Shown in pieces: positions 7,777-53,783 of a stretch of DNA of 64,000 nt. The notes beneath the pieces were generated by a model, which searched no databases, was not told where the DNA came from, and saw nothing but the letters and a program-made list of their open reading frames with translations. A program made the translations under genes and the position numbers. This DNA comes from a virus: positions 1 through 64,000 of IMG/VR virus record IMGVR_UViG_3300036668_000172; one strand, written 5' to 3'. Each line of letters starts with the position of its first letter. Position 1 is the first letter of the stretch.

Positions 7777-8408
7777 TTTAGTTCCTTAACCCAGAGATGA
7801 ATGTCTCCTACTTGACCTAGAGTAACGTTTCCTGCGGCAGATGAACGCCCAAAGATTCTGTAGGTAACTGTTGTTCCAGAAGCTAGGCCGTGAGTATCAA
7901 TGACGCTAAGAGTAAGAGCCTGAGAAGGGTCTACATAGTTCTCATATACATCGACAGAGGTAGAGCCGTCAAACCTAACAATCTTTACGTAGGAGTTATT
8001 GTTACCTGTATTAATGGCGTACCCATTAAACGCAATCTCACATGCAGAAGAAGTCGTAGTAACTATTTGTGCTTCTAACGCAACAGCTCCTGAAGTAGTG
8101 AATTGAAGGTAAGCGCTACCCACAACAGTGTGAGTAGTTCCTGACTCATAAACATCGTACTCAGGTATTCCGTTATCCCAAGCGGTGTCGTAGTCAGTAC
8201 CGCTGGCTTTTACGATAATTTGCCCAGCAGTTCCTCCAGTTGGGAACCCTGTTGGGCCAGTAGGTCCTAAAGGTCCTTCAGGTCCAGTCGGACCTAGGAC
8301 TAGTGCTGTTTCTACAGTGTTCCATACAGCCCCTGTCCATACCCAAGTTCGGCTACCTGAAGTAAACTCCTCATCTAATGCAGGAGAGTTAGGAAAATCT
8401 ATAGCCAT
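7773..8408 (-). CDS. Virion structural/fibre protein with a short collagen tract
   Basis: MAIDFPNSP..TWVWTGAVW, GPT repeats, PTGGTAGQIIVK. Confidence 0.7.
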   Translation of the reverse strand: MAIDFPNSPALDEEFTSGSRTWVWTGAVWNTVETALVLGPTGPEGPLGPTGPTGFPTGGTAGQIIVKASGTDYDTAWDNGIPEYDVYESGTTHTVVGSAYLQFTTSGAVALEAQIVTTTSSACEIAFNGYAINTGNNNSYVKIVRFDGSTSVDVYENYVDPSQALTLSVIDTHGLASGTTVTYRIFGRSSAAGNVTLGQVGDIHLWVKELN

Positions 8409-8436
8409 TTATGCCTCTGCTCTTGTTTGTGTTGGG

Positions 8437-10338
8437 TTATCCGATGACATTTATAGTGCCTACCATTGCTGAGTGGTTTTGGCATTGATAGTACAAAGTG
8501 CTGGGAGCGCCAGCGTCTATCGTAAACTGAATTCCGCCTACGTCGTCACCGTTGTTAGTAACTCCAGTGTTGTATACGTCTCCTGAAGAGTACCCCGCCC
8601 CAGTGGTCTGAATCCAAAATGGGTGCCCAGAAGCGTTTACAGTAAAGAAGTAAGTGTTACCGCGAACTAGGGTTAACGTGGGGTTATCGCTGCCGTCTAT
8701 AGTGTAAGCAGATGCCCCGTTGTTAGTTACCTGAAAGTTTTCAATAATAGTAAGTCCATCAGCTCCTGTAGGTCCAGTCACTGTTGAGTCAGCCCCTGTT
8801 GGGCCAGTAGGACCTACTGCACCGTCGGGTCCTGTAGGTCCCGTTACGGCTGAGTCAGCACCATCAGCCCCAGTAGGACCTGTAGGTCCGATAGCACCGT
8901 CAGGTCCTGTTGGCCCAACGACAGTTGAGTCTGCCCCAGTAGGACCCGTAGGTCCGCCTGAAGGTCCTGTAGGACCGACTAGGTTAGAAGTGCTTTCCAC
9001 CCAGTAGCCATCGTAATAGACGTACAGACGACTGACTGAAGAGTCAAACCAGCCGTCGCCTTCTTGAGCTGAAGCAGGCGGTGTATCTGAAACAAAGTAA
9101 CCTTGTGCAGGACCCGTAGGTCCATCAGGTCCATCAGGGCCTGTTGGTCCTGTAGGTCCAGTTGGGCCATCTTCGGTTGAAGCCGCACCAGTAGAACCAG
9201 TAGGTCCAAGAGGTCCTTGCTGTCCAAAAGGGCCAGTAGGTCCTTGCGGACCAACAACAGTGGGTACGCTGACCCACTCTGAGCTAAGGTAGGTGTAGAG
9301 ACCACGGGGGTAGAGCGTCGGGTTATCGAGGTCGGCCTCATCTTCGTAAGTGCCTATTGCAAAGTACGCGTCCCCTTCTTCAGGAGTTAACGCTGCCAAC
9401 CCCGAGTAGTCATCAACAAAGCCTAATAGAGTAAAGGTATAGCCAGTGGGGCCAGTTGGTCCTGTAGGTCCAGTAGAGCCAATAGGGCCTGTAGGGCCAA
9501 AGATAGCGCCTACATTTACCCAGATAGTCCCATTCCAAGCGTACAAAGTGGCTTCATCAGCTACAAAGTAAGCAGGATTTCCTGGCGCATTATCGTCTGG
9601 GTCAAATGTAGCTGGAAGGTCTGTAGAGGAAGTAACCCCTCCAATTACATTAAAGTTCAAAGCTTGTGGGCCAGTAGGGCCGATGATGGGGCCAATGTTT
9701 GACCAGCCAGTGTCTAGCCAGACCCAAACGTCTCCTGTGGCAGCTATGTAATACGCATCGTTTATAGTGTCGCCAAATTGAGGGAGAGCAGAAACTGTAG
9801 CTACAGTTCCCAGCAGCTGGAATCCTACCGCATTAATTCCTTGAATTCCTTGTGTACCAGAAGGTCCAGTAGGACCTTGGGGACCAGCAGGCGTTGCCTC
9901 TGCTACGTATGCCCAAGTTGAGCCTGTCCATATAGCAAAAGCATCGTTAGCACTATTCAGCCAGATGTCTCCCACTTGACGAGCGTTTGGCTGTATAGGG
10001 GAGACAGAAACGTTAGTGCTTCCAGCTGTTTCGTATACCAGAGTAGCGCTAAAGTTGACTCCCTCTACAGTAGAAGAAACAAAGAGCTCGTCGCCTTCTT
10101 CTAACGCAAAGCGGAAAGTCTCAAAGGTCTGGGTAGCACCTAGAGAAATGTTAGCGGCTACGTAAGCATAAAAGTCTGGAGTTACTGCACCGCCAGGCTT
10201 TACCCAGATGCTAACAAACGCGTCTACGGTACTGGTATTAGCAGCTATAACAGAAGAAATACCCGTGTTGCCAGCAGAAGCTAGAAGAAGGTCTGTGCTA
10301 GCTTCAGGCGTAGCGGAGCCTATACGACGTACTGCCAT
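8437..10338 (-). CDS. Collagen-like fibre with a C-terminal cupredoxin-like domain
   Basis: Extensive GPT repeats; C-terminal GHPF...[11 protein letters not shown]. Confidence 0.75.
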
Positions 10339-11525
10339 TAGATTATGTCTCCAAACAAGTAGTATGAACCGTTGATGTTCATGAGAATAGCTCTAGAATA
10401 CAGCCCGTTAGTTCTGTTCAATCCATTTTTAGACTCAATACTGATGTTGCTTCCCGAAAAAGTAACCTGCCCGTTGCCCGCCTGAACAACCTCTATCCGC
10501 TGACCATCGGTTAAGATGTTAGGGACAGTCACAGTGATTCCAGCGTCAGAAATAGACCTGACTACACCGTTAGCGTCTGTAGTTCTAAGGGTAAACGCAC
10601 TGTTAATGTCAGTAGTGATAGTGCTTACGGCCGAAGACACCATACTAGTAACGGCAGGCCCAGTTGGTCCAGCTAGGCCTAGAGGTCCCGTAACTCCTTG
10701 AGAACCAGTTGGGCCAGTAGGGCCTTGGGGCCCATCAAATCCAATGTTACCCTGAGAGCCTTGAGGGCCAGTAGGACCCTGAATTTCACCTGCATTAAAC
10801 CAAGCAGTTCCTGACCAGACGTACACGCTGCCAGTGTCAGTGACATACCTGCCATCATTAGTAGTGTTTCCAGTAGCAGGCAAGGCTGCAACAGTCGCAG
10901 ATGCCCCCCTCATAACTACAGAGGTTGCCTGAGGGCCAGCCTCACCTTGCTCGCCAGCGGGGCCAACGATTCCTCTAGGGCCTTCAGGGCCTGTATCTCC
11001 GTCAATTCCAGCTCCAGCAAACGCCCACCCGTTAGAAGTAAAAGACTCTAGACGGTTAATTTCCGTATTAAACCTCGTGTAACCTATCTCTGCCTCAGGA
11101 AAGCGCTCAGCAGTAGTGCCCTTTTCTAAGTAGATAGTGTTGACATTCCCAAGAATTGTCTTATTAGAGAAGGTCTGCGACAAGTTTTCAGGAAGAACAG
11201 CGTCAGACTGAGGAATTCCTGTGCAAGTAAATGAACAGCTATTGGTAGTAGCCTGAACGAAGACCGCGTCTCCAGCGTTAACTGCAAATCTGAAGGTCTC
11301 AAAAGCTTGCCCAACATCAATTGAGAGGTTCTTAGCAATGTAGATGTACTGGTTTTCAGTCGTGGCTCCCAGAGGGACAACCCAGATGTTAGCTTTTAAT
11401 TCGGGTGTAGTTGCAAGGGTTGTGTTGGCAGCTAATACGGAGATAAGGTGCGCTCCCGCAAAGCTTGCCAGCACTGAGGGACCATTGGCAACGGGTGTTA
11501 CTGTTCCCAGTCTTGAGACTCCCAT
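10338..11525 (-). CDS. Collagen-like fibre protein, paralogous at the N-terminus to 8437..10338
   Basis: Shared FETFRFA motif and GPxG repeats. Confidence 0.75.
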
Positions 11526-20150: not shown

Positions 20151-21671
20151 TTATACACCCAGCCACCAAGACTGACTCAGTGAAATAGAGCCCTGTGAAC
20201 CCTGAGGTCCAGTCGGTCCAACTTGCCCCGCTACCTCTACAAACACCCCTTCATAGTAGATGTAAGTTTTGGCATTGTCAGTGTTAAACCAAGCTGTTCC
20301 ATTGGGGAACATGCCCGAAGGCTCTACGGGGCCTGAGAAGAAAGCTCCCTGGGCACCTGTTGGTCCAGTTGGTCCGAAAGGCCCAGTTGAACCAAGGGGC
20401 CCTGTAACAAACGAGTCTGCACCGATAGGTCCAGTTGGCCCTGTCGGACCTGTAGGGCCTGTTACAAAGGAATCGGCTCCAGTAGGGCCTGTTGGTCCTG
20501 TTGGTCCTGTTGGTCCAACAAAGCGACCCACATTGACAAATGCCGCTCCGTCATACTTCCAGAGGTCACCAGTATCAGCGACAATCCAACCGTCATTAAA
20601 GGTATTGTCTTCATTAGGAAGATTAGCTGAGGTAGCAACGCTGCCCAGAATGTCAATGGCCTCACCCGTAGCACCAGTTGGTCCTGTAGGTCCAGTGGGT
20701 CCTGTAGGTCCTGTGACCTGAGATGCGGCACCAGTTGAACCAGTAGGTCCAGTAGGTCCTAGGGGACCAGTAGGCCCAGTAGGCCCAGTAACAATAGAGT
20801 CTTCACCAATAGGTCCAGTAGGTCCCGTCGGGCCCAGCTCACCTTGAGGGCCAACAATCTGGCCAGCACTTACCCAACCGTTCATCACAGACCAGACGTA
20901 AAGGTCTCCATCTGAGTCAACAATGTAAGCATCGTTAGGGCTGTTGCTTAAAGTAGGCAAAAGGCTAGGGTTATCAACAGAGCCCACAAGGTGGATGTCA
21001 GTACCCTGAGGACCAGTGGACCCAATAGGTCCAGTTGGTCCAGTCACGCCACGAGGGCCGCTGGGTCCAGTTACGCCTTGGTTACCCTGAAGACCAGCAG
21101 GACCGCTTGGTCCAAGGTCTCCAGTCAAACCACGAGCACCCGTAGGGCCAGTAACTCCAGTAACACCAGTAGGACCAGTGACACCAGTAGAGCCTGTAGG
21201 TCCAGTAGCACCAACTAAGCCAGCTGAACCAGTAGGTCCAGTTACACCTTCAAAACCACGAACACCAGGTTCCCCAATAGGTCCAGTGTTTCCACGAGGT
21301 CCTTGAGCACCCTGTGCTCCAGTAGGTCCAGGAGTGCCGTCAAAACCGCGAGGACCAGTGGTCCCCGTAGGCCCAGTTACACCAGCAGGACCAGTAGGCC
21401 CCGAGATTGGACCTAGGTTTAGCCAAGTAGTGCCATTCCAGATGTAAAGGTCAGAGCCGATAGTATAGGCATCTCCACGAAGGGGGCTAGGCGCAGCAGC
21501 CTGTAAGGCGGCTAGATTAGCATAAGACCCTAGTACAGTGATTCCTTCACCTGCAGGTCCAGTAGGCCCAGTAGGTCCTAGTGCGCCCGTAGCTCCACGC
21601 TGGTTAGGAACCGCGGGAAGTAAGGTGGAATCAATGCTGGGGTATAACGGGGAATCTGGGTCAATAGCCAT
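20151..21671 (-). CDS. Collagen triple-helix repeat protein
   Basis: Long G-X-Y runs interspersed with GDAY..GDLYVW modules. Confidence 0.85.
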
Positions 21672-27845: not shown

Positions 27846-29456
27846 TTAGTAAAACATGTTAGAGGTAGACTCCACCTCTGGCATAACTAGGTCCACAGTC
27901 ATAGAGCAGGCGATAGCTAACGAGTCTACGAAGTCATCATGGGCGTAGTTCTCCTTAGGAGCCTCCACAGAGAAGTTAGGTCCCTTGTAGGTAACTTCTG
28001 CGTCTGTCATCTGCTGGTAGAACTGCTTCCATACACGCAGTCTCTTTGTCTTAGCGTGAGACGGGAAAGAGAGCATGCGGCGCTGTATTAGCGCCTGCAA
28101 ATGTTTAAACCTTCTAGACTGCTCTGTAGGGCTAGAGGTAAGGCCAATCACTTCTGCTCTGGGCATTAAGACTTTTAGTCGTTGAGCGACAGCGTCGCCG
28201 ACTCCGTTCGAGTCCACCCCAATCGCGAGAACATCGTAGTTATTAAGAAAGTTAACGATTTGAAAATACTGTTCTTCCCAATCATCCCCTTGAATTTCCA
28301 GCCAGTTGAGAACTCTGTGGTCATAATAGCCAAACTCATCTGGGCGGTCCCAGTCAACCCAGACCACAGTGACAACAGTGGAGTCCATTTTTCTAGCAGG
28401 GTCGACTCCGACCACAACAGGGGTTTGATGCCAGACTTTGACGAGCTCTTGCGACTTGTCACCCAGTTCATCCAAGAGGGTAGCCGTAACAAACATGCCT
28501 CGCTCAAGAAGCCATTTGCAGTTGTAAGACATCTGGAACTCATCTGATTCTTCTCCAATTCGCAATGCCTCTTTCTTAATAAACTTTGCATAGTTCTTGT
28601 TGACTTTTGCTACGTCTTTCCAGTCCCACTGGTAGTGGTTCTGTCGAGCCCCACGCCCACTGGCGCGGCGCTTATTGAGCTGGATAGAACGGTAAAAGTT
28701 GTTCTTACTGGTGGTGGGTGTTCCTGTCTTTATCATGGTTCCTGCGTAATACGCAAGCATCGGAGCGATTGACTTAGAGACCACGAAGTCATCTGCTTCT
28801 TGGCACTCATCGATTACGATTACGTGGAACGACTTGGACTCAATCTTTGCGCGAGGGTTAGCTGTCATCATGGTGAGTGTTGACCCGAGCTTCTTCATGC
28901 GAATCATTCTGGTAACACCACCGACTTTGGCTGCCTCGTCATCTATTTCTGGGTCTCCCAGTACTTCAAGAGCAATCTCTGAGGTTAGTCGAGTGACCGT
29001 ACGAGAGAAGAGGGTTTCGGCCTGAGACTCAGTAGGAGCAAACATCCCTACCCACAAGCCATCTCTAAAGCGCCCTAGCAGGTCTGGGTATAGTTTTGCG
29101 AGAAGAGGCAGGAGAACCATGAGAGTTGCAAGTGTGTCAGATACAGTTTCAGTCTTTCCAGACTGGCGAGATGCTAGCGCAGTTACTTCTTCGCCGTCAT
29201 TTATAATAACGGACTCTATAATACGACGAGCTAAAGGCTTCTGGTATACGTGAAGGTCATGCCCGACCAAAACCTCCATAAAGGTCATAATCTTGTCTAT
29301 AAGCTTTATAACAAATGCGGTGGTTAGTTCGTCAGGTTCTTCGTCCCAGCCCTGTTCAGACTCATCTTCATGGTCTTCTTGATAGAACTCAGGGTTAATT
29401 TCCTCAAACTTCTCCCGCTCTTCAAAGTCATTTACTATTTCTTCGTAGTCAGCCAT
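27846..29456 (-). CDS. terL: Terminase large subunit
   Basis: Walker A SRQSGKT, Walker B VIVIDE, GTP motif, RNase H-like VGVDPA and HDDFVDS. Confidence 0.93.
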   Translation of the reverse strand: MADYEEIVNDFEEREKFEEINPEFYQEDHEDESEQGWDEEPDELTTAFVIKLIDKIMTFMEVLVGHDLHVYQKPLARRIIESVIINDGEEVTALASRQSGKTETVSDTLATLMVLLPLLAKLYPDLLGRFRDGLWVGMFAPTESQAETLFSRTVTRLTSEIALEVLGDPEIDDEAAKVGGVTRMIRMKKLGSTLTMMTANPRAKIESKSFHVIVIDECQEADDFVVSKSIAPMLAYYAGTMIKTGTPTTSKNNFYRSIQLNKRRASGRGARQNHYQWDWKDVAKVNKNYAKFIKKEALRIGEESDEFQMSYNCKWLLERGMFVTATLLDELGDKSQELVKVWHQTPVVVGVDPARKMDSTVVTVVWVDWDRPDEFGYYDHRVLNWLEIQGDDWEEQYFQIVNFLNNYDVLAIGVDSNGVGDAVAQRLKVLMPRAEVIGLTSSPTEQSRRFKHLQALIQRRMLSFPSHAKTKRLRVWKQFYQQMTDAEVTYKGPNFSVEAPKENYAHDDFVDSLAIACSMTVDLVMPEVESTSNMFY

Positions 29457-32525: not shown

Positions 32526-32875
32526 AACGCGTCTTCTTCTAGCTTAGCAATGCGCTTTTCTAGCAATTGAAACTTTTTGTCACCTTTTTCAATTCTATCT
32601 TCAATGCGGTCTACCGCATCCTTAAGGGAGCTTCCTCCATTATTAGATAACTGACCGTCAATCTTATTAAGTCTTTCCATAACTCCAGGGTCTCCGTCCC
32701 TACCGTCACGGCCCCTGGTCCCTGCCCAATCCACCATAAAGTTCTCCCACGCGGCCATCGCGGCGAAGAGCCTTTTAAAAATGGGACTGACTAGTTGCTT
32801 AATAGCAAACACAGCACCTACTACCACAGTGATGCTGGCAGCGAGGGTTAGGATTAAAGTCATTTCTGAAGACAT
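32522..32875 (-). CDS. Membrane protein of the lysis region
   Basis: N-terminal TM helix, PGVMERL and NGGSSLKDAVDRIE, as seen in actinophage lysis cassettes. Confidence 0.65.
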   Translation of the reverse strand: MSSEMTLILTLAASITVVVGAVFAIKQLVSPIFKRLFAAMAAWENFMVDWAGTRGRDGRDGDPGVMERLNKIDGQLSNNGGSSLKDAVDRIEDRIEKGDKKFQLLEKRIAKLEEDAL

Positions 32876-34971: not shown

Positions 34972-35120
34972 TTTTCCTCTTCATCTGAGAAGACCTCAAC
35001 TTCGTATTCACTCTCGTCAAACAAGGAGTAAAGTAGGTCTTCGTCTAGCTCTTCGCCATCAAAATAGACATCATCCGCTGTATCAGCGTCGTAAGGGTCT
35101 ATAGGTCCGTACCAGGTCAC
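34968..35120 (-). CDS. Highly acidic 50-aa protein (leaderless, GTG start)
   Basis: MTWYGPIDPYDADTADDVYFDGEELDEDLLYSLFDESEYEVEVFSDEEEK; extended -10 TGG-CACACT 6 nt upstream. Confidence 0.6.
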   Translation of the reverse strand: MTWYGPIDPYDADTADDVYFDGEELDEDLLYSLFDESEYEVEVFSDEEEK

Positions 35121-35161
35121 ATAAATAGTGTGCCACAGATTGTTTGTGTTGGTGTTCTAAG

Positions 35162-35235
35162 CTCCCCTTCCTGGACTTGAACCAAGAACCTACGAGTTAA
35201 CAGCTCGCCGCTCTGCCGAATTGAGCTAAAGGGGA
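35162..35235 (-). tRNA. tRNA-Asn(GTT), CCA not encoded
   Basis: TCCCCTT-TA-GCTC-AATTCGGCA-GAGC-G-GCGAG-CTGTTAA-CTCGT-AGGTT-CTTGG-TTCAAGT-CCAGG-AAGGGGA-G. Confidence 0.95.
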
Positions 35236-35339
35236 AAGGCTTTAAGCTTTTACTAGCTTCCTTTTAACTGAGTCAAAGGTCTTTGGGTGCTTCTTAGAAG
35301 ATTTCCCATTGTTTCTTTTATCGTTACTTGTTTTAGCCA

Positions 35340-35507
35340 TTAGCTTTTACCCCATCCGCCACCCTTAAAGATGGCCGCGCCTAGTGAGAATTTCTTTCTC
35401 CGTGCAGTAGAGCACGTCATACAAATGATAGTTGGGGAATCACTGACAGGGTGGCTAATTTCAATAACACTTTTACAAGTTGCGCACTCGTAGTCATACA
35501 CTGCCAT
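35340..35507 (-). CDS. FmdB-family zinc ribbon protein
   Basis: MAVYDYECATC...CMTC...FKGGGW; RBS AAAGGAG places the start at 35507. Confidence 0.85.
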   Translation of the reverse strand: MAVYDYECATCKSVIEISHPVSDSPTIICMTCSTARRKKFSLGAAIFKGGGWGKS

Positions 35508-35524
35508 AGTTCTCCTTTGCACGT

Positions 35525-35596
35525 GGGCTGTAGAGGAGTTGCACCTCTCATGTGGTCAGAAAGGAAGTAAAGACCCCACACGGCTCTCGTCAGCCC
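35525..35596 (-). ncRNA. tRNA-like RNA with an anti-SD-like loop in place of the anticodon
   Basis: Acceptor-like GGGCTG/CAGCCC, no D stem, central stem GTGT-GG-GGTC/GACC-ACAT with loop UUUACUUCCUUUCU, T arm AGAGG-TGCAACT-CCTCT. Confidence 0.65.
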
Positions 35597-35598
35597 TA

Positions 35599-35680
35599 AA
35601 ACAGTGGCAAGTACAACCAGAAGTCGTAGTAGAAGATTTGGTTAGTTATAATCGGATAACCGAAGTACTTGCCACTGTTT
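35599..35680. ncRNA. Putative structured RNA closed by a perfect 16-bp inverted repeat
   Basis: AAACAGTGGCAAGTAC (35599-35614) / GTACTTGCCACTGTTT (35665-35680) enclosing two small stems. Confidence 0.5.
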
Positions 35681-35684
35681 AGTT

Positions 35685-35930
35685 TTAGACTAGTACTTCG
35701 TCAGCTCCGCCACTACGGTCTGACGCTGTACTGGGATTAGTATAGTCAATAAAGTCTAACATTGCAGCAATCGAGTAATAAGACACGTCAAAGAAAGTAG
35801 AGGCTTGAGAAAGCAGGTCTACTGGGTGACTAACTTTCTCTAAACCGTATACGTCTTCTAGGTACTGCAGCAGGGCTGGAGTAAACGCTTCTATGAAGTC
35901 TGCTGGTGCCATGCAAGGAAATTCATTCAT
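35685..35930 (-). CDS. Hypothetical protein
   Basis: Co-oriented ORF. Confidence 0.6.
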   Translation of the reverse strand: MNEFPCMAPADFIEAFTPALLQYLEDVYGLEKVSHPVDLLSQASTFFDVSYYSIAAMLDFIDYTNPSTASDRSGGADEVLV

Positions 35931-35933
35931 TAG

Positions 35934-36167
35934 TTATTCCGTCTCTAAATGCCTATTAAACACAAGTCGCTCACGTTCATCAATGATTTGATACGCAAAC
36001 TTCATTAGCTTTTCGTATGCTTCAGCATCGGTAGTGGTTTTGTTGTAGTGATGAGCGCAGAAAAGTAGCTCACCAATGTTTCCCACAGCCTTCACATAGG
36101 CCTGAGAGGAACACTCGAAGTCGCACCTGTCTAGGGGCGTAAGCGTCCAGACCACTGTTTCAGTCAT
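35934..36167 (-). CDS. Conserved actinobacterial Zn-binding protein
   Basis: LTPLDRCD..CSSQAYV...GELLFCAHH. Confidence 0.7.
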   Translation of the reverse strand: MTETVVWTLTPLDRCDFECSSQAYVKAVGNIGELLFCAHHYNKTTTDAEAYEKLMKFAYQIIDERERLVFNRHLETE

Positions 36168-40208: not shown

Positions 40209-40291
40209 GGTGACCCCCTGGTAGAACTGTCCGTAGATGAAAAGGGGGTAACAACTACGGCTCGGCCAGGGGGCCACCTGAGTAGATAGTA
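40209..40291 (-). ncRNA. Stand-alone small RNA with its own promoter and an anti-SD-like loop
   Basis: Extended -10 TGC-TACTAT (hexamer 40286-40291); 13-bp stem GGTGGCCCCCTGG/CCAGGGGGTCACC; inner stem CCGTAG/CTACGG; loop UUACCCCCUUUU. Confidence 0.6.
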
Positions 40292-40317
40292 GCACATGCC
40301 ATGGCTACAGGGGCGTT

Positions 40318-44019: not shown

Positions 44020-44043
44020 CAGCAAGCCCCAACACAAACAAAC

Positions 44044-44102
44044 GCCCGAATAGCATACGTATAGGTGCAAGTCCTATACGGGCACGAGTAGTAACCGCTA
44101 CT
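44044..44102 (+). ncRNA. Mini tRNA-like element, copy 1, plus hairpin, upstream of an RBS
   Basis: GCCCG-AATAGCATACG-TATAGG-TGCAAGT-CCTATA-CGGGC-ACG-AGTAG-TAACCG-CTACT. Confidence 0.7.
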
Positions 44103-44123
44103 TATACATGAAAGGAATAACGC

Positions 44124-44297: not shown

Positions 44298-46303
44298 ATG
44301 AACGAATGGACAGTATGGGTAGGTGGTGGAGAAGTCAATGACCACCTACTTACCTTTGAAGAAGCCTCAGAAGTACTAGAAGAGTACAAGCAAAGAGGTT
44401 ACGAAGATGCAACTATAGAGAGGATAAAAGAATGAAAAAGTATGTAACAGACGTAACAATCAGCGTGACAGTAGACGCTAAGGATACAGAGAATGCGTGG
44501 AGGCAAATAAACCAGCTTGCAATCGCTCTAAGAGACCTCGCTGAAGCAATGGATTACAACTCAGAGCTTCAGGACATAGAGGAGCCAGAAGAGATAGAGG
44601 AGGAAAACTAATGCCAGAAGAGAAATGGGTTACCGTAGCTTATCACGATGAGCCAGAAGACGAGCTAATGGTATTCGTATCCATTGACAAAAAATGGATA
44701 GAAGGAGAAGACGATGACAACATCTTTTTCTACTTTGATACGCAAGAAGAATACGAGAACGCAAAACAAATAGACAACGGACTAGAGTTCCGCATACTAA
44801 AGGAGGAGAACTAATGAGCAAGGTTATTAGAGCAAGCATTGTTTTTGAATACTTGGTGGATGGGGATGAAGTCCTAAGTGAACTTACACCCGAAGAACAA
44901 ATTGAGTATGTCAAAGAAAATGTCGTAGAAGACATAATGTCTATGGGTTTTGGGAATTCTGATTCCTTACTAGCCGCAATTGAAATCAAAGTGTTAGAGG
45001 AGGACTAAGATGCCAAATTATTTAGCGCATTATTCAGTAGGTGAATACGGAAAAGTATGGTTCAAAGCGGATTCGTTTGAACACGCGGAGAAGTTACTTG
45101 CAGAGGTGTTGGAAGGTGAAATGCTATTCGATGACTTGCCTAACATGGCAACCAAGCCGAAAGGCGATGAGCTAGAGATTGAAGGCTTGGAGGAGTTGCC
45201 CTAATGGATTGCCCAAGGCACGAAGGAAGCTACGATTGCACACCATTTTGTAACCTATGCGAGGGCAACCAAGAATACGAAACTAAGGAGATAACTAAAT
45301 GACCAAATGGATAGAGAACGAGCACGCTGAAGCAGAAGCAAACTTAGAGTATCAACGACAAGCAATTGCTAGGGGTGGTGGAAGCGTTAGCGAACTAGAT
45401 TATGCAATTGGATACCTAGACGCAATAACTAACGCTTGGAACGAAGAGTCTGGAATGCCCCAACACAAACAAACCATAGAACACCCAACTAAGGAGGAAA
45501 ACTAATGAGCAAGCAAGTTCACTTTGTAATAGCAGTAGACGTAGACACTAAAGAAATTTACATAGACGACGATACCTATTCGGCAAGGTTTGATGAGGAA
45601 CAAGGCTACTTTGACACCGATACAGAAAGTTGGAAAGCAGACGACGACCAATCTTTCTATAATCAAGCACTAGAGATACTAAACACTAAGGGAAAGGTAT
45701 GCGGACAATGTTAGATAACAGCACTAAAGGCTTAGAGCCAGCCACACTAACAGGCTCAGAGTTGGAAGATGAAGACACAATCGTATGGCAGTCAACACTT
45801 ACTCAAGAGATGGTAGAGCACATGTCTGAAAAAGACTTGAGCAACCTAATCGAAGAGCTAGACAGTGCAGTAGAAGACATCTGCACACAGTATGACGAAG
45901 ACATGAGTGGGCTTTAAGAGCTGTGGAAATCAGCAGGCACTATGCACACGAGATTGTAGTAGCACAGTACTCAGACCTCAACGGTGTAGCCGTGAATTTC
46001 TCAATAGAGTGTCTAGACTGCGACGAAGTAATAGCCGACCAAGACGAACCAACTAACTAAGGAGGAAAGACCATGAGCAGCTTATGGAAGAGTAAAAAGA
46101 AAGACCTATCAGGTAAGTTCACTATCACCTACAGCATCACGTACAACATGAGCAAGAAGTCACTACGTAAGGACTTCCTTGAGTGGTGTGACGATTACAA
46201 GCCAACCGTTAAAGCATTGAACGATTGGTTGTCAGACAGATTCATTGACCCTATAGCAGTAGACCCTAAGGCAACACTAACGATAACTAAGGAGAGTAAC
46301 TAA
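44298..46303 (+). CDS. Run of small, mostly acidic proteins (44298-44435, 44432-44611, 44611-44814, 44814-45008, 45010-45204, 45204-45302, 45299-45505, 45505-45714, 45699-45917, 45923-46060, 46073-46303)
   Basis: Tightly coupled ORFs with AGGAG(G) RBSs; several translated by hand below the track cutoff. Confidence 0.6.
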
Positions 46304-46854: not shown

Positions 46855-47483
46855 ATGAACGCTATAACAATCCCTTACAAGATAGAAGACAAAGAGTTCT
46901 GGTCAAGCATCCTAGGTAGTACAGAGTTCACCGAAGAGTGGTGGCTCAAGATTCACTATGAGGACGACACTAGTTGGGAGTATCCAGGAGCTATACAAGT
47001 GACTGCACTAGATGGAGACAACAAGCCAGTTACTAAGAGACTTACATTAGATGACCTGCTGGTTGCATACATCTTTGCAGTGACACGTGAGTATGGTCAC
47101 TGTGGTGCACTAGTAGACATACAAGACATGGACTCATGCGCCAGTGACATAGTGCTGCAGATAGCAATGTTCGGAGATGTTATCTATGGATAGTAAGCGT
47201 GTGAAGTTCTTACTACGTGGAGCAAAGCAAACACTGCCCCAACACAAACAAACCATAGAACACCTATGGATACGTAAGAAAACAATTTTGCGTATCATGA
47301 CCGAGGCCTATAACATGGGCAGAGAGGATGAACATGGAATTCAAACAGACCCTAATGTGTGAAGAGTGCTTTGCACACTACACCGATACAGACCCCAAGC
47401 ACGTATGCGGAGAGAATGGTGAATACGTAGTGTTCCCATTTGAATTGTACGGCCCCGAAGCGCTTTGGGATAGCGAGTACTAG
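46855..47483 (+). CDS. Three hypothetical proteins (46855-47193, about 47186-47362, 47328-47483)
   Basis: First ends D.IVLQIAMFGDVIYG; third has CEEC..HVC. Confidence 0.55.
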
Positions 47484-47490
47484 CACCATA

Positions 47491-47549
47491 GCCAGACCAG
47501 CAGACACCTAGGTGCAAGTCCTAGGCTGGCACGACTAGCAACCGCTAGT
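47491..47549 (+). ncRNA. Mini tRNA-like element, copy 2, plus hairpin, upstream of an RBS
   Basis: GCCAG-ACCAGCAGACA-CCTAGG-TGCAAGT-CCTAGG-CTGGC-ACG-ACTAG-CAACCG-CTAGT. Confidence 0.7.
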
Positions 47550-47568
47550 TATTTATGAAAGGAAATTC

Positions 47569-51897: not shown

Positions 51898-52214
51898 CAA
51901 CAAAGAAATTCCGTACAGGTAAAGCTGCAACAAAGAGCTTTTTACTACCAAGCTTTGACTTGGCACGAGCGCTGTGTGCTAAGGCAGACCCTGAGGTGTT
52001 CTTTCCTGATACAGGTGCGATGAGTGACGTCAAAGGTGCCAAAAGAATCTGTAACGCATGTGAGGTACAGGTTGACTGTCTTGAGTGGGCACTGAAGAAC
52101 GAAGAGGAATACGGCATCTGGGGAGGGCTTACAGCTGCCGAGAGACGTCGCCTAAGTCGTGCACGTAAAAGGTATCAAGTTGTGCAAGTACCTGCCCCTA
52201 AAGTAAGAAAGTAA
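51894..52214 (+). CDS. whiB: WhiB-family transcription factor
   Basis: ALC...DPEVFFP...AKRICNACEVQVDCLEWAL...YGIWGGLTAAERRRL. Confidence 0.95.
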   Translation: MTTKKFRTGKAATKSFLLPSFDLARALCAKADPEVFFPDTGAMSDVKGAKRICNACEVQVDCLEWALKNEEEYGIWGGLTAAERRRLSRARKRYQVVQVPAPKVRK

Positions 52215-52283: not shown

Positions 52284-53783
52284 CTAGTCTTCTAACGATG
52301 TCTTAATAATTCGGGTAGTTTGCTGTTCATCTAAGGGCTGTTGCATCTCCCTTAAAGCCGACGCTTTGTCGCCAAATATAGCGCTCAAAACCCCTCCAGA
52401 AGTCTGCCTGCTGGCAGTGATGCTGACGAACTCTTTATTGCTTTCTAGGTCCTTCATATTAGCGACCAGTTTAAACAACCTGTCTACTTCTTGAGACACG
52501 TTCGGGTCGGCGTAGCCGCCGTTCATTTCTTCGGCAAATCGCATGAACGCTACCCTCTGACCTTGCATCTCTATAATAGTGGTCAGCAAATCTTTTAATT
52601 GTTCTCTGGTTTTAACCTCTACTGGCAGGTTAAATGCGCACGTGTTATCTGGCTTAAATGCAGGACAATTTGCTGCGACAAAACACGTATTACACTGTCT
52701 TAATGAGGTCTGTTGTGAGCGTACTACTGACACCTGTTTTAGGACATCTTTACCGTCCTCATCCTTGTCTACAATAGTCTTCGACTCAAACCCAAAAATA
52801 GGTAAATTAACCTTTTCTAGTGGGTCTCTGGCTATTACTTTTTTCCGCTCTTCTACCCCCTTGTTAGTAGAACCTACCCCACCCATTTCCATTAAACCTG
52901 TGTATAGGGTATCCTCGTTGTTATCTACTAACATCTCATCTTTGGAGGGTAAACCACCTTTTATGACTCTTAAATCTGGCTTATCTTTATCCATTTTGGC
53001 CTCTAACTGTAAATATGACCACACTGCTAACTTGGTGGCCTCTGTTGTGTCATCATCTACGAACTTCTTAAAATCTAAACTTGCCTTTTCCACGACGTTC
53101 TTGTATCGTAATCGGGCTTGGTCTTTCATCTTCTTTGGATACCGCACCAGTTTGGTGCCGTCCCATACAATGGTCTCACCTCTACGCATTGGTGATAACC
53201 AACTCAATGTGCTGGCTGTGTCGAATGGAATCTGTCGTAAGTTATCTGGCTTTGCTGTTCCTAATGCATGAAACTTCACGTCATTATTTGCTTTTAGGCT
53301 TCTAGTTAATCCTGCTAATGCTGGGACATTTTCAATTACTGAACCAGGTATTGCGATGTTCTCGTACTCCTGTGCCCACCTCTGTAATAATAAGGTGTTA
53401 TACGATTCGTGCCATACTACCCACATCTTTGGGTCGTTCTCGAATGCCGCACGTTCCTGTTGAATTCTAATTAATCCCCACTGCTGGGAGTCAAACTCAG
53501 TCCAACCCTCTATTCTGTCGTAATTTAACGCTATAAAATCTTGATAGTTGGCGGCGTACTCTTCCATCTCCCTGGCACTCAATCCTGCTTTATCTGCCTG
53601 GACTGCGCCTGAATCTACCCATACTTTCATGTCAGAATAGAATCGTTCACCAATTAAATAGTCTTTGGTCTTGGGTAATCCCCTCTTACACAATCCCCAA
53701 TAATTTAACATGACGTGAGTGACGCCATTCTTTTCTAATAACGTTCGGTTACTCGGAATCTCTACCCCGCCGAAGATAATCAA
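52284..53783 (-). CDS. TGT/DpdA-like transglycosylase-fold protein with a C-terminal Cys cluster
   Basis: VDSGA, WTEFD, VVWH, NIAIPG, KFHALG, PFDTASTLSW; CNTCFVAANC...TC. Confidence 0.55.
   Translation of the reverse strand: MIIFGGVEIPSNRTLLEKNGVTHVMLNYWGLCKRGLPKTKDYLIGERFYSDMKVWVDSGAVQADKAGLSAREMEEYAANYQDFIALNYDRIEGWTEFDSQQWGLIRIQQERAAFENDPKMWVVWHESYNTLLLQRWAQEYENIAIPGSVIENVPALAGLTRSLKANNDVKFHALGTAKPDNLRQIPFDTASTLSWLSPMRRGETIVWDGTKLVRYPKKMKDQARLRYKNVVEKASLDFKKFVDDDTTEATKLAVWSYLQLEAKMDKDKPDLRVIKGGLPSKDEMLVDNNEDTLYTGLMEMGGVGSTNKGVEERKKVIARDPLEKVNLPIFGFESKTIVDKDEDGKDVLKQVSVVRSQQTSLRQCNTCFVAANCPAFKPDNTCAFNLPVEVKTREQLKDLLTTIIEMQGQRVAFMRFAEEMNGGYADPNVSQEVDRLFKLVANMKDLESNKEFVSITASRQTSGGVLSAIFGDKASALREMQQPLDEQQTTRIIKTSLED

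Follow-up and report, generated by a model that had tools for sequence, protein, structure and literature searches.

Tag-less mini-tmRNAs are common in phages and almost unstudied, with one published case. Mycobacteriophage DS6A encodes a CDS-less tmRNA that is reduced to the tRNA-like domain (TLD) (Mao et al. 2009, via PMC4131195 and PMC11915505), and as presented in the same sources a similar molecule is a strong inhibitor of tmRNA irrespective of whether it can be charged, possibly because it titrates SmpB (Hudson et al. 2014, PMC4131195; PMC11915505). We located the DS6A RNA at positions 28478-28556 of JN698994, where it aligns to the Rfam tmRNA model with the middle skipped (34.7 bits). 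The tRNA-like RNA gene analysed here, termed element 1, resembles it in its size of about 80 nt and in its architecture of a 7-bp acceptor, a long central hairpin standing where tRNAs have the anticodon arm, and then a 4-nt link, the T arm and A73, as well as in having neither a tag reading frame nor an encoded CCA and in being phage-borne and situated beside tRNA genes. The DS6A RNA differs by its AAUGGU.UCGA D-loop and by lacking the invariant loop UUCCUUUC of element 1, whereas the copy of element 1 in the DNA under study has a G3-C70 pair, the T loop UGCAACU and an FmdB-like gene directly after it. The TLD-only form itself is already known; new is its loop-bearing variant.

Small RNAs with pyrimidine loops that bind mRNAs are also described for the actinobacterial phylum (PMC6486639). 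According to that article, the C/U-rich loops of the 6C sRNA and of other Gram-positive pyrimidine-loop sRNAs could pair with the purine-rich RBSs of several mRNAs without a chaperone, a capacity that element 1 would share. Nevertheless, there is neither sequence or structure homology nor an Rfam match between the two, and the loop of element 1 is U-rich instead of C-rich and sits on a tRNA-like scaffold.

The window, that is, the whole 64-kb stretch analysed, is the first part of a single-contig phage genome of 83,749 bp that encodes terminase, portal and capsid along with PolA, DnaB, primase, RecA, an AAA+/VWA pair and two WhiB genes. The host is presumably an actinobacterium, given the two WhiB genes and the capsid, which is about 60% identical to those of Streptomyces phages. 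DNA runs containing the stretch stem mostly from salt lake metagenomes, and no RNA run containing it came up. The minus-strand order of the locus is a hairpin with 16-nt arms, element 1, the motif AAAGGAG, the FmdB-like gene, a small basic ORF recognized by eye and tRNA-Asn. The FmdB-like zinc-ribbon gene (35340-35507, minus strand, start ATG at 35507) encodes 55 amino acids; its product scores 32.6 bits against PF09723 (Zn_ribbon_8), under the cut-off of 34.4, and matches phrog_1076 with E = 2.4e-4. Its Shine-Dalgarno sequence AAAGGAG (35512-35518, minus strand) starts 6 nt past A73 of element 1. The true tRNA-Asn(GTT), called by ARAGORN and Rfam and devoid of an encoded CCA, lies at 35161-35235 (minus strand), 290 nt downstream of element 1. 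On the other side, a long leader hairpin read from the sequence occupies 35598-35680 (minus strand), with its arms at 35680-35665 and 35613-35598. The 3' arm, which is conserved in orthologues of element 1, ends in UUU; a U (35597) and an A then precede base 1. A simple terminator scan did not call this hairpin, and a consensus scan of positions 35000-36000 returned neither a sigma-70 promoter nor an intrinsic terminator. Among GenBank phages, a 5-kb query of the locus matched solely at tRNA-Asn.

Architecture and conservation of element 1

Element 1 comprises bases 1-73, including the discriminator A73, at 35524-35596 on the minus strand, as defined by sequence, folds, six versions and pair counts; 35596 is base 1, and the resulting numbering coincides with that of standard tRNAs. 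The original prediction had placed a tRNA-scaffolded RNA of 72 nt at 35525-35596, and its position is borne out, on the minus strand. The 5' acceptor strand GGGCUGA (35590-35596, minus strand) pairs through bases 1-6 (GGGCUG) with 35530-35525, and the 3' strand ACAGCCC (35525-35531, minus strand) supplies bases 67-72 (CAGCCC), leaving 7:66 as an A-A mismatch. Bases 15-48 (35549-35582, minus strand) form the central hairpin, which replaces the D and anticodon arms in the minimum free energy (MFE) folds of all six versions; in the window copy it consists of 7 bp, a GG bulge, 2 bp and the 14-nt loop UUUACUUCCUUUCU (35558-35571, minus strand), within which the octamer UUCCUUUC at 35566-35559 is constant across versions. 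The T arm follows as bases 49-65 (AGAGG / UGCAACU / CCUCU; 35532-35548, minus strand). Just as predicted, the RNA lacks both a G3-U70 pair and a CCA: pair 3:70 is G-C, and A73 is followed by CG at 35523-35522.

Element 1 agrees with canonical tRNA (RF00005) in its length of 72 nt plus discriminator and in possessing both an acceptor stem and a T arm whose loop has 7 nt; the distance between its 5' acceptor strand and its T arm is that of the adjoining tRNA-Asn. The 7-bp acceptor, 5-bp T stem and 7-nt loop of a tRNA are thereby recognizable, with 6 bp plus the A-A mismatch and the variant loop UGCAACU in the window copy. In place of the canonical 5-bp anticodon stem and 7-nt loop, however, there is a hairpin of 9-10 bp with a loop of 14-15 nt (19 nt in the MFE fold of version L013), and no anticodon. 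ARAGORN and Rfam at gathering thresholds find only tRNA-Asn(GTT) at the locus, in agreement with the expectation that element 1 would yield no canonical hit; since neither program makes such a call for the window copy or any orthologue, an ordinary tRNA or tmRNA gene was rejected. The 11-nt core GGUGCAACUCC of the T arm is identical to the model consensus of the Tymovirus tRNA-like structure (RF00233), and the UGCAACU T loop is thus known from a proven mimic of tRNA. The likeness to this element of a plant RNA virus is confined to 15 nt (Tymo_tRNA-like T arm, 10 bits, E = 6), element 1 has no pseudoknotted acceptor, and we claim no relationship.

The arrangement exceeds what shuffled sequence produces. 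Exact matches to the T-arm motif GGTGCAANTCC number three in the 83,749-bp genome, at 35545 (minus strand), 44064 and 47511 (both plus strand), and ACG follows each of them. A descriptor requiring a 5-bp T stem, a loop T[GT]C[AG]ANN and, within 70 nt, a perfect acceptor of 5 bp or more retrieved four loci from both strands of the whole genome, namely tRNA-Asn, element 1 and the elements at 44044 and 47491. In 60 dinucleotide shuffles the same descriptor found 0.5 +/- 0.6 loci, with a maximum of 2, and none of the 60 reached four. The folding energy of element 1 by itself is unexceptional (z = -1.63; equally good folds in 16 of 200 shuffles).

Six distinct versions of element 1 were recovered, all from uncultured phages (window/L012, L013, L014, L146, L148 and L149). 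Scanning IMG/VR with the FmdB-like protein yielded 40 loci, and three of the ten upstream regions that were read contain the element: L012, which is near-identical to the window, L013 (74% protein identity) and L014 (65%). It is absent upstream of the FmdB-like genes of L015 (44%) and of six more distant loci. A DNA pattern combining the loop octamer with the RBS matched 11 stretches of metagenome contigs, which represent three new versions (L146, L148 and L149), three copies of the L013 type and five chance matches. In 185,579 species genomes, where prophage copies were sought, the loop-plus-RBS pattern gave seven stretches, none of them tRNA-like, and among the 89 stretches with the loop pattern in IMG/VR the real ones belong to just three lineages that were already known.

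Folded individually, all six versions adopt the acceptor, the central hairpin and the T arm, and RNAalifold recovers all three helices, with the loop-proximal pairs of the central hairpin kept. In a MAFFT alignment, 95.8% of the acceptor and T-stem cells hold standard pairs, compared with 36-54% when the partners are slid by 1-3 columns. Because MAFFT aligned the 5' strands of the versions inconsistently, we relied on descriptor scans in place of a covariance model. Acceptor pairs 1-6 are standard in all six versions, and two T-stem pairs have changed on both sides. Pair 3:70 is G-U in four versions and G-C in two (window and L014); the T loop reads UUCGANU in four and UGCAAYU in two (again window and L014), and A73 is present throughout. 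The acceptor of L146, L148 and L149 reaches 7 bp, and with their 3-bp mini D arm, 4-nt variable region and canonical UUCGANU T loop these versions are fuller cloverleaves; the mini D arm and variable region bring them nearer to canonical tRNA. An attP remnant of a tRNA or tmRNA gene was ruled out because both acceptor strands are present and covary.

The loop is conserved in a different manner from the stems. While three unrelated sequences make up the central stem and the linker from acceptor to central stem varies between 2 and 11 nt, the octamer UUCCUUUC is identical in all six versions. L146, L148 and L149 cannot be counted toward this invariance, as their search pattern required loop and RBS; for window/L012, L013 and L014, which were found via the protein, the loop is free of ascertainment bias. 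The FmdB-like gene stands directly after element 1 in all six versions, with a tRNA gene nearby, and the 17-nt trailer is nearly invariant (CCACGUGCAAAGGAGAA, near-identical in L013 and L014). As to population variants, contigs of X2, X3 and X5 and contig 19 of X9 show no change inside 35525-35596; contig 19 carries five changes in 296 nt elsewhere, too few for significance. A second contig of X9, an L014-like variant, departs from the window at 35580-35582. Failure of the T arm and loop to persist in relatives, or a match to a known family, would have spoken against the original prediction; instead, both parts are kept in related phages. Element 1 is a genuine, structured and conserved small-RNA gene.

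Probable kinship with tmRNA and the DS6A-type RNAs

That the layout resembles the TLD of tmRNA had been noted beforehand, and the likeness goes beyond layout. L148 aligns end to end with the Rfam tmRNA model (RF00023), spanning model positions 1-374 but skipping the middle; its scores of 23.9 and 15.3 bits (E = 1.4e-6 and 9.5e-5) both lie below the gathering cut-off of 47 bits. This cut-off is reached neither by the window copy, which has no match to the model at E <= 10, nor by L148, nor by the published DS6A RNA with its 34.7 bits. As in SsrA, the acceptor and the T arm fall at opposite ends of the model, and the 3' halves of L146, L148 and L149 (ACG-T arm-...UCCAC) are near the consensus; unlike SsrA, element 1 is devoid of pseudoknots and of an mRNA-like domain, and ARAGORN makes no tmRNA call. 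The window copy shows the TLD-only layout: a long helix stands where the anticodon arm would be, a T arm is present, there is no tag frame, and phage tRNA genes lie next to it.

Two larger relatives of the window phage, G003 and G005, encode 80-nt DS6A-like RNAs that have G3-U70 as well as an ACG trailer and stand immediately ahead of tRNA genes. The gene order in G003, TLD RNA, tRNA-Asn plus five more tRNAs, an FmdB homologue (37% identity) and an M23 peptidase, parallels that of the window, so that a DS6A-type RNA occupies the same slot in sister phages. In Rfam, the G003 RNA matches tmRNA_permuted only, at 14.1 bits. A pattern scan of IMG/VR for the DS6A-type form returned 41 stretches, of which 36 are true members with covarying acceptors. 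These 36 share the D-loop AAUGGU.UCGAUUGC (AAUGGU.UCGA), a motif that was part of the search pattern. The conserved GG...UCGA is absent from element 1, which has CGAGAGCC there, or just GG in L013. By position and layout, with no significant sequence score for the window copy, element 1 is apparently a diverged offshoot of the TLD-only mini-tmRNA family. It would then exemplify how mini-tmRNAs evolve: the tRNA-like head persists and serves as scaffold, the traits on which charging with alanine and binding of SmpB depend fade, and a loop resembling the 16S tail becomes the most conserved part.

Given this apparent kinship, element 1 might act as proposed for the DS6A RNA, binding host SmpB with or without alanine and blocking trans-translation, the loop being incidental or auxiliary. 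The matching layout of the 80-nt DS6A RNA, the standard TLD-only form in the same slot of sister phages and the retention of G3-U70, A73 and a canonical T loop in four of the six versions all point in this direction, as does the strong inhibition of tmRNA by a similar molecule in the account of Hudson et al. 2014 (PMC4131195; PMC11915505). However, the D-loop common to the 36 DS6A-type RNAs is replaced by 2-11 variable nucleotides (GG in L013), and the window copy, having G3-C70 beside its A73, has lost the G3-U70 component of alanine identity and any match to the tmRNA model. Neither an SmpB gene nor a CCA-adding enzyme was found in the phage. Moreover, a decoy for SmpB leaves unexplained why the loop is the most conserved part and why paralogues without the central arm exist. 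We consider this function rather improbable for element 1.

The pyrimidine loop and its possible partners

The original prediction had read the central loop as a mimic of the 3' end of 16S rRNA. An 11-mer of the loop would be identical to a 16S 3' end of this kind. CCUUUCU is kept in the loop of five of the six versions. A loop of the same type accompanies the DS6A-type RNAs of the sister phages: in G005, the predicted primary transcript begins, downstream of a TTGACA-16-TAGTAT promoter, with a 12-bp hairpin that has CCUCCUUUCU in its loop, and the TLD RNA starts five bases later, whereas G003 has a leader hairpin with CUCCUUUCU in the loop and a second hairpin with a C-rich loop. Of the 29 distinct contexts examined upstream of DS6A-type RNAs, those of G003, G005, L185 and L201 have CCUUUC in a leader-hairpin loop, and a fifth occurrence lies outside a loop. 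The tail-like pyrimidine loop is therefore a recurrent minority companion of these RNAs. In the window lineage it is carried by the central arm itself and not by the leader hairpin, and there its invariance suggests that the loop is the part under selection.

A role in cis had been put forward at the outset, in which the loop pairs with the RBS of the FmdB-like gene. In such a regulator, the loop of the unprocessed transcript would mask AAAGGAG 40 nt downstream until processing or a bound factor, possibly the FmdB-like protein, freed it. The position of the element directly before the FmdB RBS in six of six versions, the near-invariant 17-nt trailer and the possible 7-bp duplex fit this idea, and the GUG and UUG starts of orthologous genes, seen by eye, suggest tuned translation. 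Yet the duplex includes a G-U pair, and a loop selected for this RBS would read CUCCUUU; loop and RBS are both invariant, which leaves no covariation between them. In the L-shaped fold of a tRNA, loop and 3' trailer would lie far apart, at opposite ends. The G003 homologue of FmdB is translationally coupled to another gene and has no such element. None of the four leader loops with CCUUUC (G003, G005, L185 and L201) has an RBS nearby, and because the companions in G003 and G005, whose hairpins precede tRNA arrays, stand apart from any RBS, cis masking is unlikely to be what the motif is for. As a main function, pairing in cis is thus left unsupported, and we give a cis regulator little probability. 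A purely trans role, for its part, does not explain the strict adjacency to FmdB in six versions.

Antisense RNA C4 of phages P1 and P7 is a comparable small phage RNA: it is released by RNase P from a longer transcript, and its loops pair with the RBS region encoded there. Between C4 and element 1 neither a sequence likeness nor an Rfam match was seen, and C4 is not known to be built from an acceptor and a T arm.

The exact complement of the loop octamer, GAAAGGAA, has five occurrences in the whole genome. One is the loop's own antisense, and the remaining four are RBSs of plus-strand genes (41821, 44110, 46842 and 47557); two of these four sites belong to paralogous cassettes and are not independent. 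In phage G002, five non-self occurrences comprise three RBSs of the plus-strand block, one minus-strand RBS and one other site. When RBS duplexes were ranked by energy, plus-strand genes made up 5 of the best 14 in the window against 45 of 144 genes, which is unspecific, and in G002 plus-block genes made up 10 of the top 14 against 37 of 163. We do not rely on early-gene targeting, as the plus-block enrichment is seen in G002 but not in the window. The 8-bp duplex between the loop and GAAAGGAA has only two G-C pairs. Pyrimidine loops in general pair with Shine-Dalgarno sequences, and the genes of the phage itself use strong ones.

On the basis of these results, we tentatively propose, as a quite possible reading, that element 1 is a small RNA of an actinobacterial phage, descended from a mini-tmRNA and predicted to be a processed, stable RNA that acts in trans via its loop. 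Element 1 would be transcribed together with the FmdB-like gene and tRNA-Asn. Host RNase P would cleave at base 1, right behind the leader hairpin, and a 3' tRNA-processing nuclease such as RNase Z would cut past A73; from the acceptor/T-arm fold we infer a stable RNA of about 73 nt. In the window lineage the D-loop would have decayed, as would the alanine mark G3-U70 in the window copy, and the part under selection would be the loop UUCCUUUC on the central arm. This loop, which resembles the anti-Shine-Dalgarno sequence of 16S rRNA, may pair in trans with RBSs of the GAAAGGA type and thus hinder 30S binding on a subset of messages.

In a broader formulation, which we regard as unlikely, phages of aquatic actinobacteria would use the tRNA-like head of tmRNA as a stable scaffold to display a copy of the anti-Shine-Dalgarno tail, either as an abundant, phage-made free anti-SD that competes for Shine-Dalgarno sequences and changes the choice of messages translated, or as a decoy that shields ribosomes from host toxins clipping the 16S tail. 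The display would be placed on the leader hairpin in some lineages and on the central arm in that of the window. If this is true, such RNAs form a new class for translational take-over or counter-defence by phages.

The decoy can also be formulated on its own: the scaffold shows a copy of the anti-Shine-Dalgarno sequence that absorbs a host factor acting on the 16S tail, for example an infection-triggered RNase of a toxin-antitoxin system. Phage RNAs that mimic the RNA partner of a toxin are known from pseudo-ToxI. Consistent with a tail decoy are CCUCCUUUCU and CUCCUUUCU in the leader loops of G005 and G003 and CCUUUCU in five of the six versions of element 1. [quoted passage not shown] However, the substrates of RelE1 are 30S and 70S particles, not free RNA. 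The published site CACCU is not kept in the window, where the core is UUCC instead of CUCC, and the bases upstream of CCUUUC vary (AC, AA, GU). We hold the decoy on its own to be quite unlikely.

For the trans-acting RNA that we prefer, competition of the loop for RBSs would amount to a new way for a phage to steer translation, as shielding of ribosomes from tail-cutting toxins would to a new way of protecting it. The engineered 'tRNA scaffold' for RNA expression would then have a counterpart in nature. The element 1 family is small, makes clear predictions and is directly testable.

Armless paralogues

The T loop and 3' ACG that element 1 had been said to have in common with elements at 44044 and 47491 are indeed found there, with GGTGCAANTCC exact at all three sites. 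In element 2 (44044-44086, plus strand), identified by descriptor, by fold and as family D10, an 11-nt linker connects a 5-bp acceptor with a 6-bp T stem that bears the loop UGCAAGU, and ACG comes next; a second hairpin (44087-44102), the RBS GAAAGGAA (44110-44117) and a start codon follow on the plus strand. Element 3 (47491-47533, plus strand; descriptor and fold) has the same build and is followed on that strand by a second hairpin (47534-47549), the RBS GAAAGGAA (47557-47564) and an AAA ATPase gene. Both are devoid of the central arm. They are 80% identical over 74 nt, with compensatory differences in all three stems. A sigma-54 promoter suggested by eye from TGGCAC near element 3 was rejected: the spacing deviates by two, and element 2 does not have the motif.

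The near-identical phage G001 contains four such elements in 6 kb, one of them inside an inserted gene cassette, and a single one, whose T loop is canonical and whose second hairpin is similar, is present in G002. In five of five more distant relatives, no such element precedes the AAA ATPase gene. The paralogues show the acceptor/T-arm module in use alone, most simply as a processing or stabilising signal, and the armless form of the scaffold is reused ahead of early genes.

Extended to element 1, this would make it a processing signal or relic only, whose acceptor and T arm do no more than mark cleavage sites of RNase P and RNase Z, so that cistrons are separated and mRNA ends defined as they are by operon-embedded tRNAs; the loop would be functionless. 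The armless paralogues keep acceptor, T arm and ACG with compensatory changes just ahead of RBSs, they come and go with gene cassettes between near-identical phages and are missing before the same gene in distant relatives, and all copies are co-oriented with their flanking genes. On the other hand, the octamer of element 1 has stayed invariant while stems and linkers diverged, which is not expected of a spacer, and we judge a mere signal distinctly improbable for element 1. The 11-nt linker of elements 2 and 3 resembles the 5' part of the L014 element.

Tag-less tRNA-like RNAs and their upstream regions

True 80-nt TLD-only tmRNAs of the tag-less type found in mycobacteriophage DS6A, with covarying acceptors, account for 36 of the 41 pattern matches (IMG/VR loci L184-L224). 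Many of the TLD RNAs at these loci are preceded by a TTGACA promoter overlapping the upstream gene's final codons (...KPKVIDIK), and a leader hairpin comes 3' of this promoter. At one locus, L185, a free-standing T-arm-like hairpin, GAUAAG-UUCGAUU-CUUAUC, lies ~45 nt upstream of the TLD RNA, placed between the latter and a hairpin with the loop CUCCUUUC.

Further candidate RNAs in the window and in a related phage

Besides element 1, the tRNA-like RNA directly preceding the FmdB-like gene, the window holds a second pyrimidine-loop small RNA candidate at 40209-40294 (-). No ORF is found within this interval; a 6-bp hairpin with the loop UUGUUACCCCCUUUUCAU is enclosed by a 13-bp outer stem, a U-run follows, and the heptamer GAGCCGU is common to the candidate and element 1. 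In the related phage G002, an uncalled tRNA-like element at 32564-32630 (-) (loci L160/L009) sits inside a noncoding gap of ~400 nt. Its acceptor includes three G-U pairs and its T arm reads CUAAG-UUCGAUU-CUUAG. It is followed by a hairpin with GCAACCGC; elements 2 and 3, the short paralogues of element 1 at 44044 and 47491 (+), each have a similar one as their second hairpin.

FmdB-like gene starts and an intergenic CA-rich motif

Whereas the FmdB-like gene of the window starts with AUG, the start directly 3' of the element, as read by eye, is apparently GUG in three other versions of element 1 (L013, L146 and L148) and UUG in a fourth (L149). The FmdB stop codon is overlapped (TAATG) by a very basic 32-aa ORF at 35242-35340 (-), its frame likewise read by eye, and a 39-nt piece of this ORF has 87% identity in a second related phage, G003. 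The CA-rich motif CCAACACAAACA (family D13) is repeated at intergenic spots, always oriented in the direction of transcription, with window copies at 44029-44040, 45460-45471 and 47239-47250 (+) and at 35141-35152 (-); the last occupies the usual Shine-Dalgarno position directly ahead of a GTG start. A 17-nt form, CACCAACACAAACAATC, is 100% conserved in G002.

Repeats and other genes

Long arrays of GGN-rich repeats with a 9-nt period (collagen-like Gly-X-Y) span 8240-11020 and 20340-21610 (-) of the window, in large ORFs at 8437-11525 and 20151-21671 (-). In the near-identical phage, a divergent early region (L001 150-460) is dense with GTTAC/GTTAT repeats, which could be iterons or operator sites. 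A queuine-tRNA-ribosyltransferase-like gene at 52284-53783 (-) (phrog_887, E = 6e-65) possibly serves DNA modification. WhiB-family genes are located at 51963-52154 (+) of the window and at 65127-65351 (-) of G000, apparently the whole genome of the same phage.
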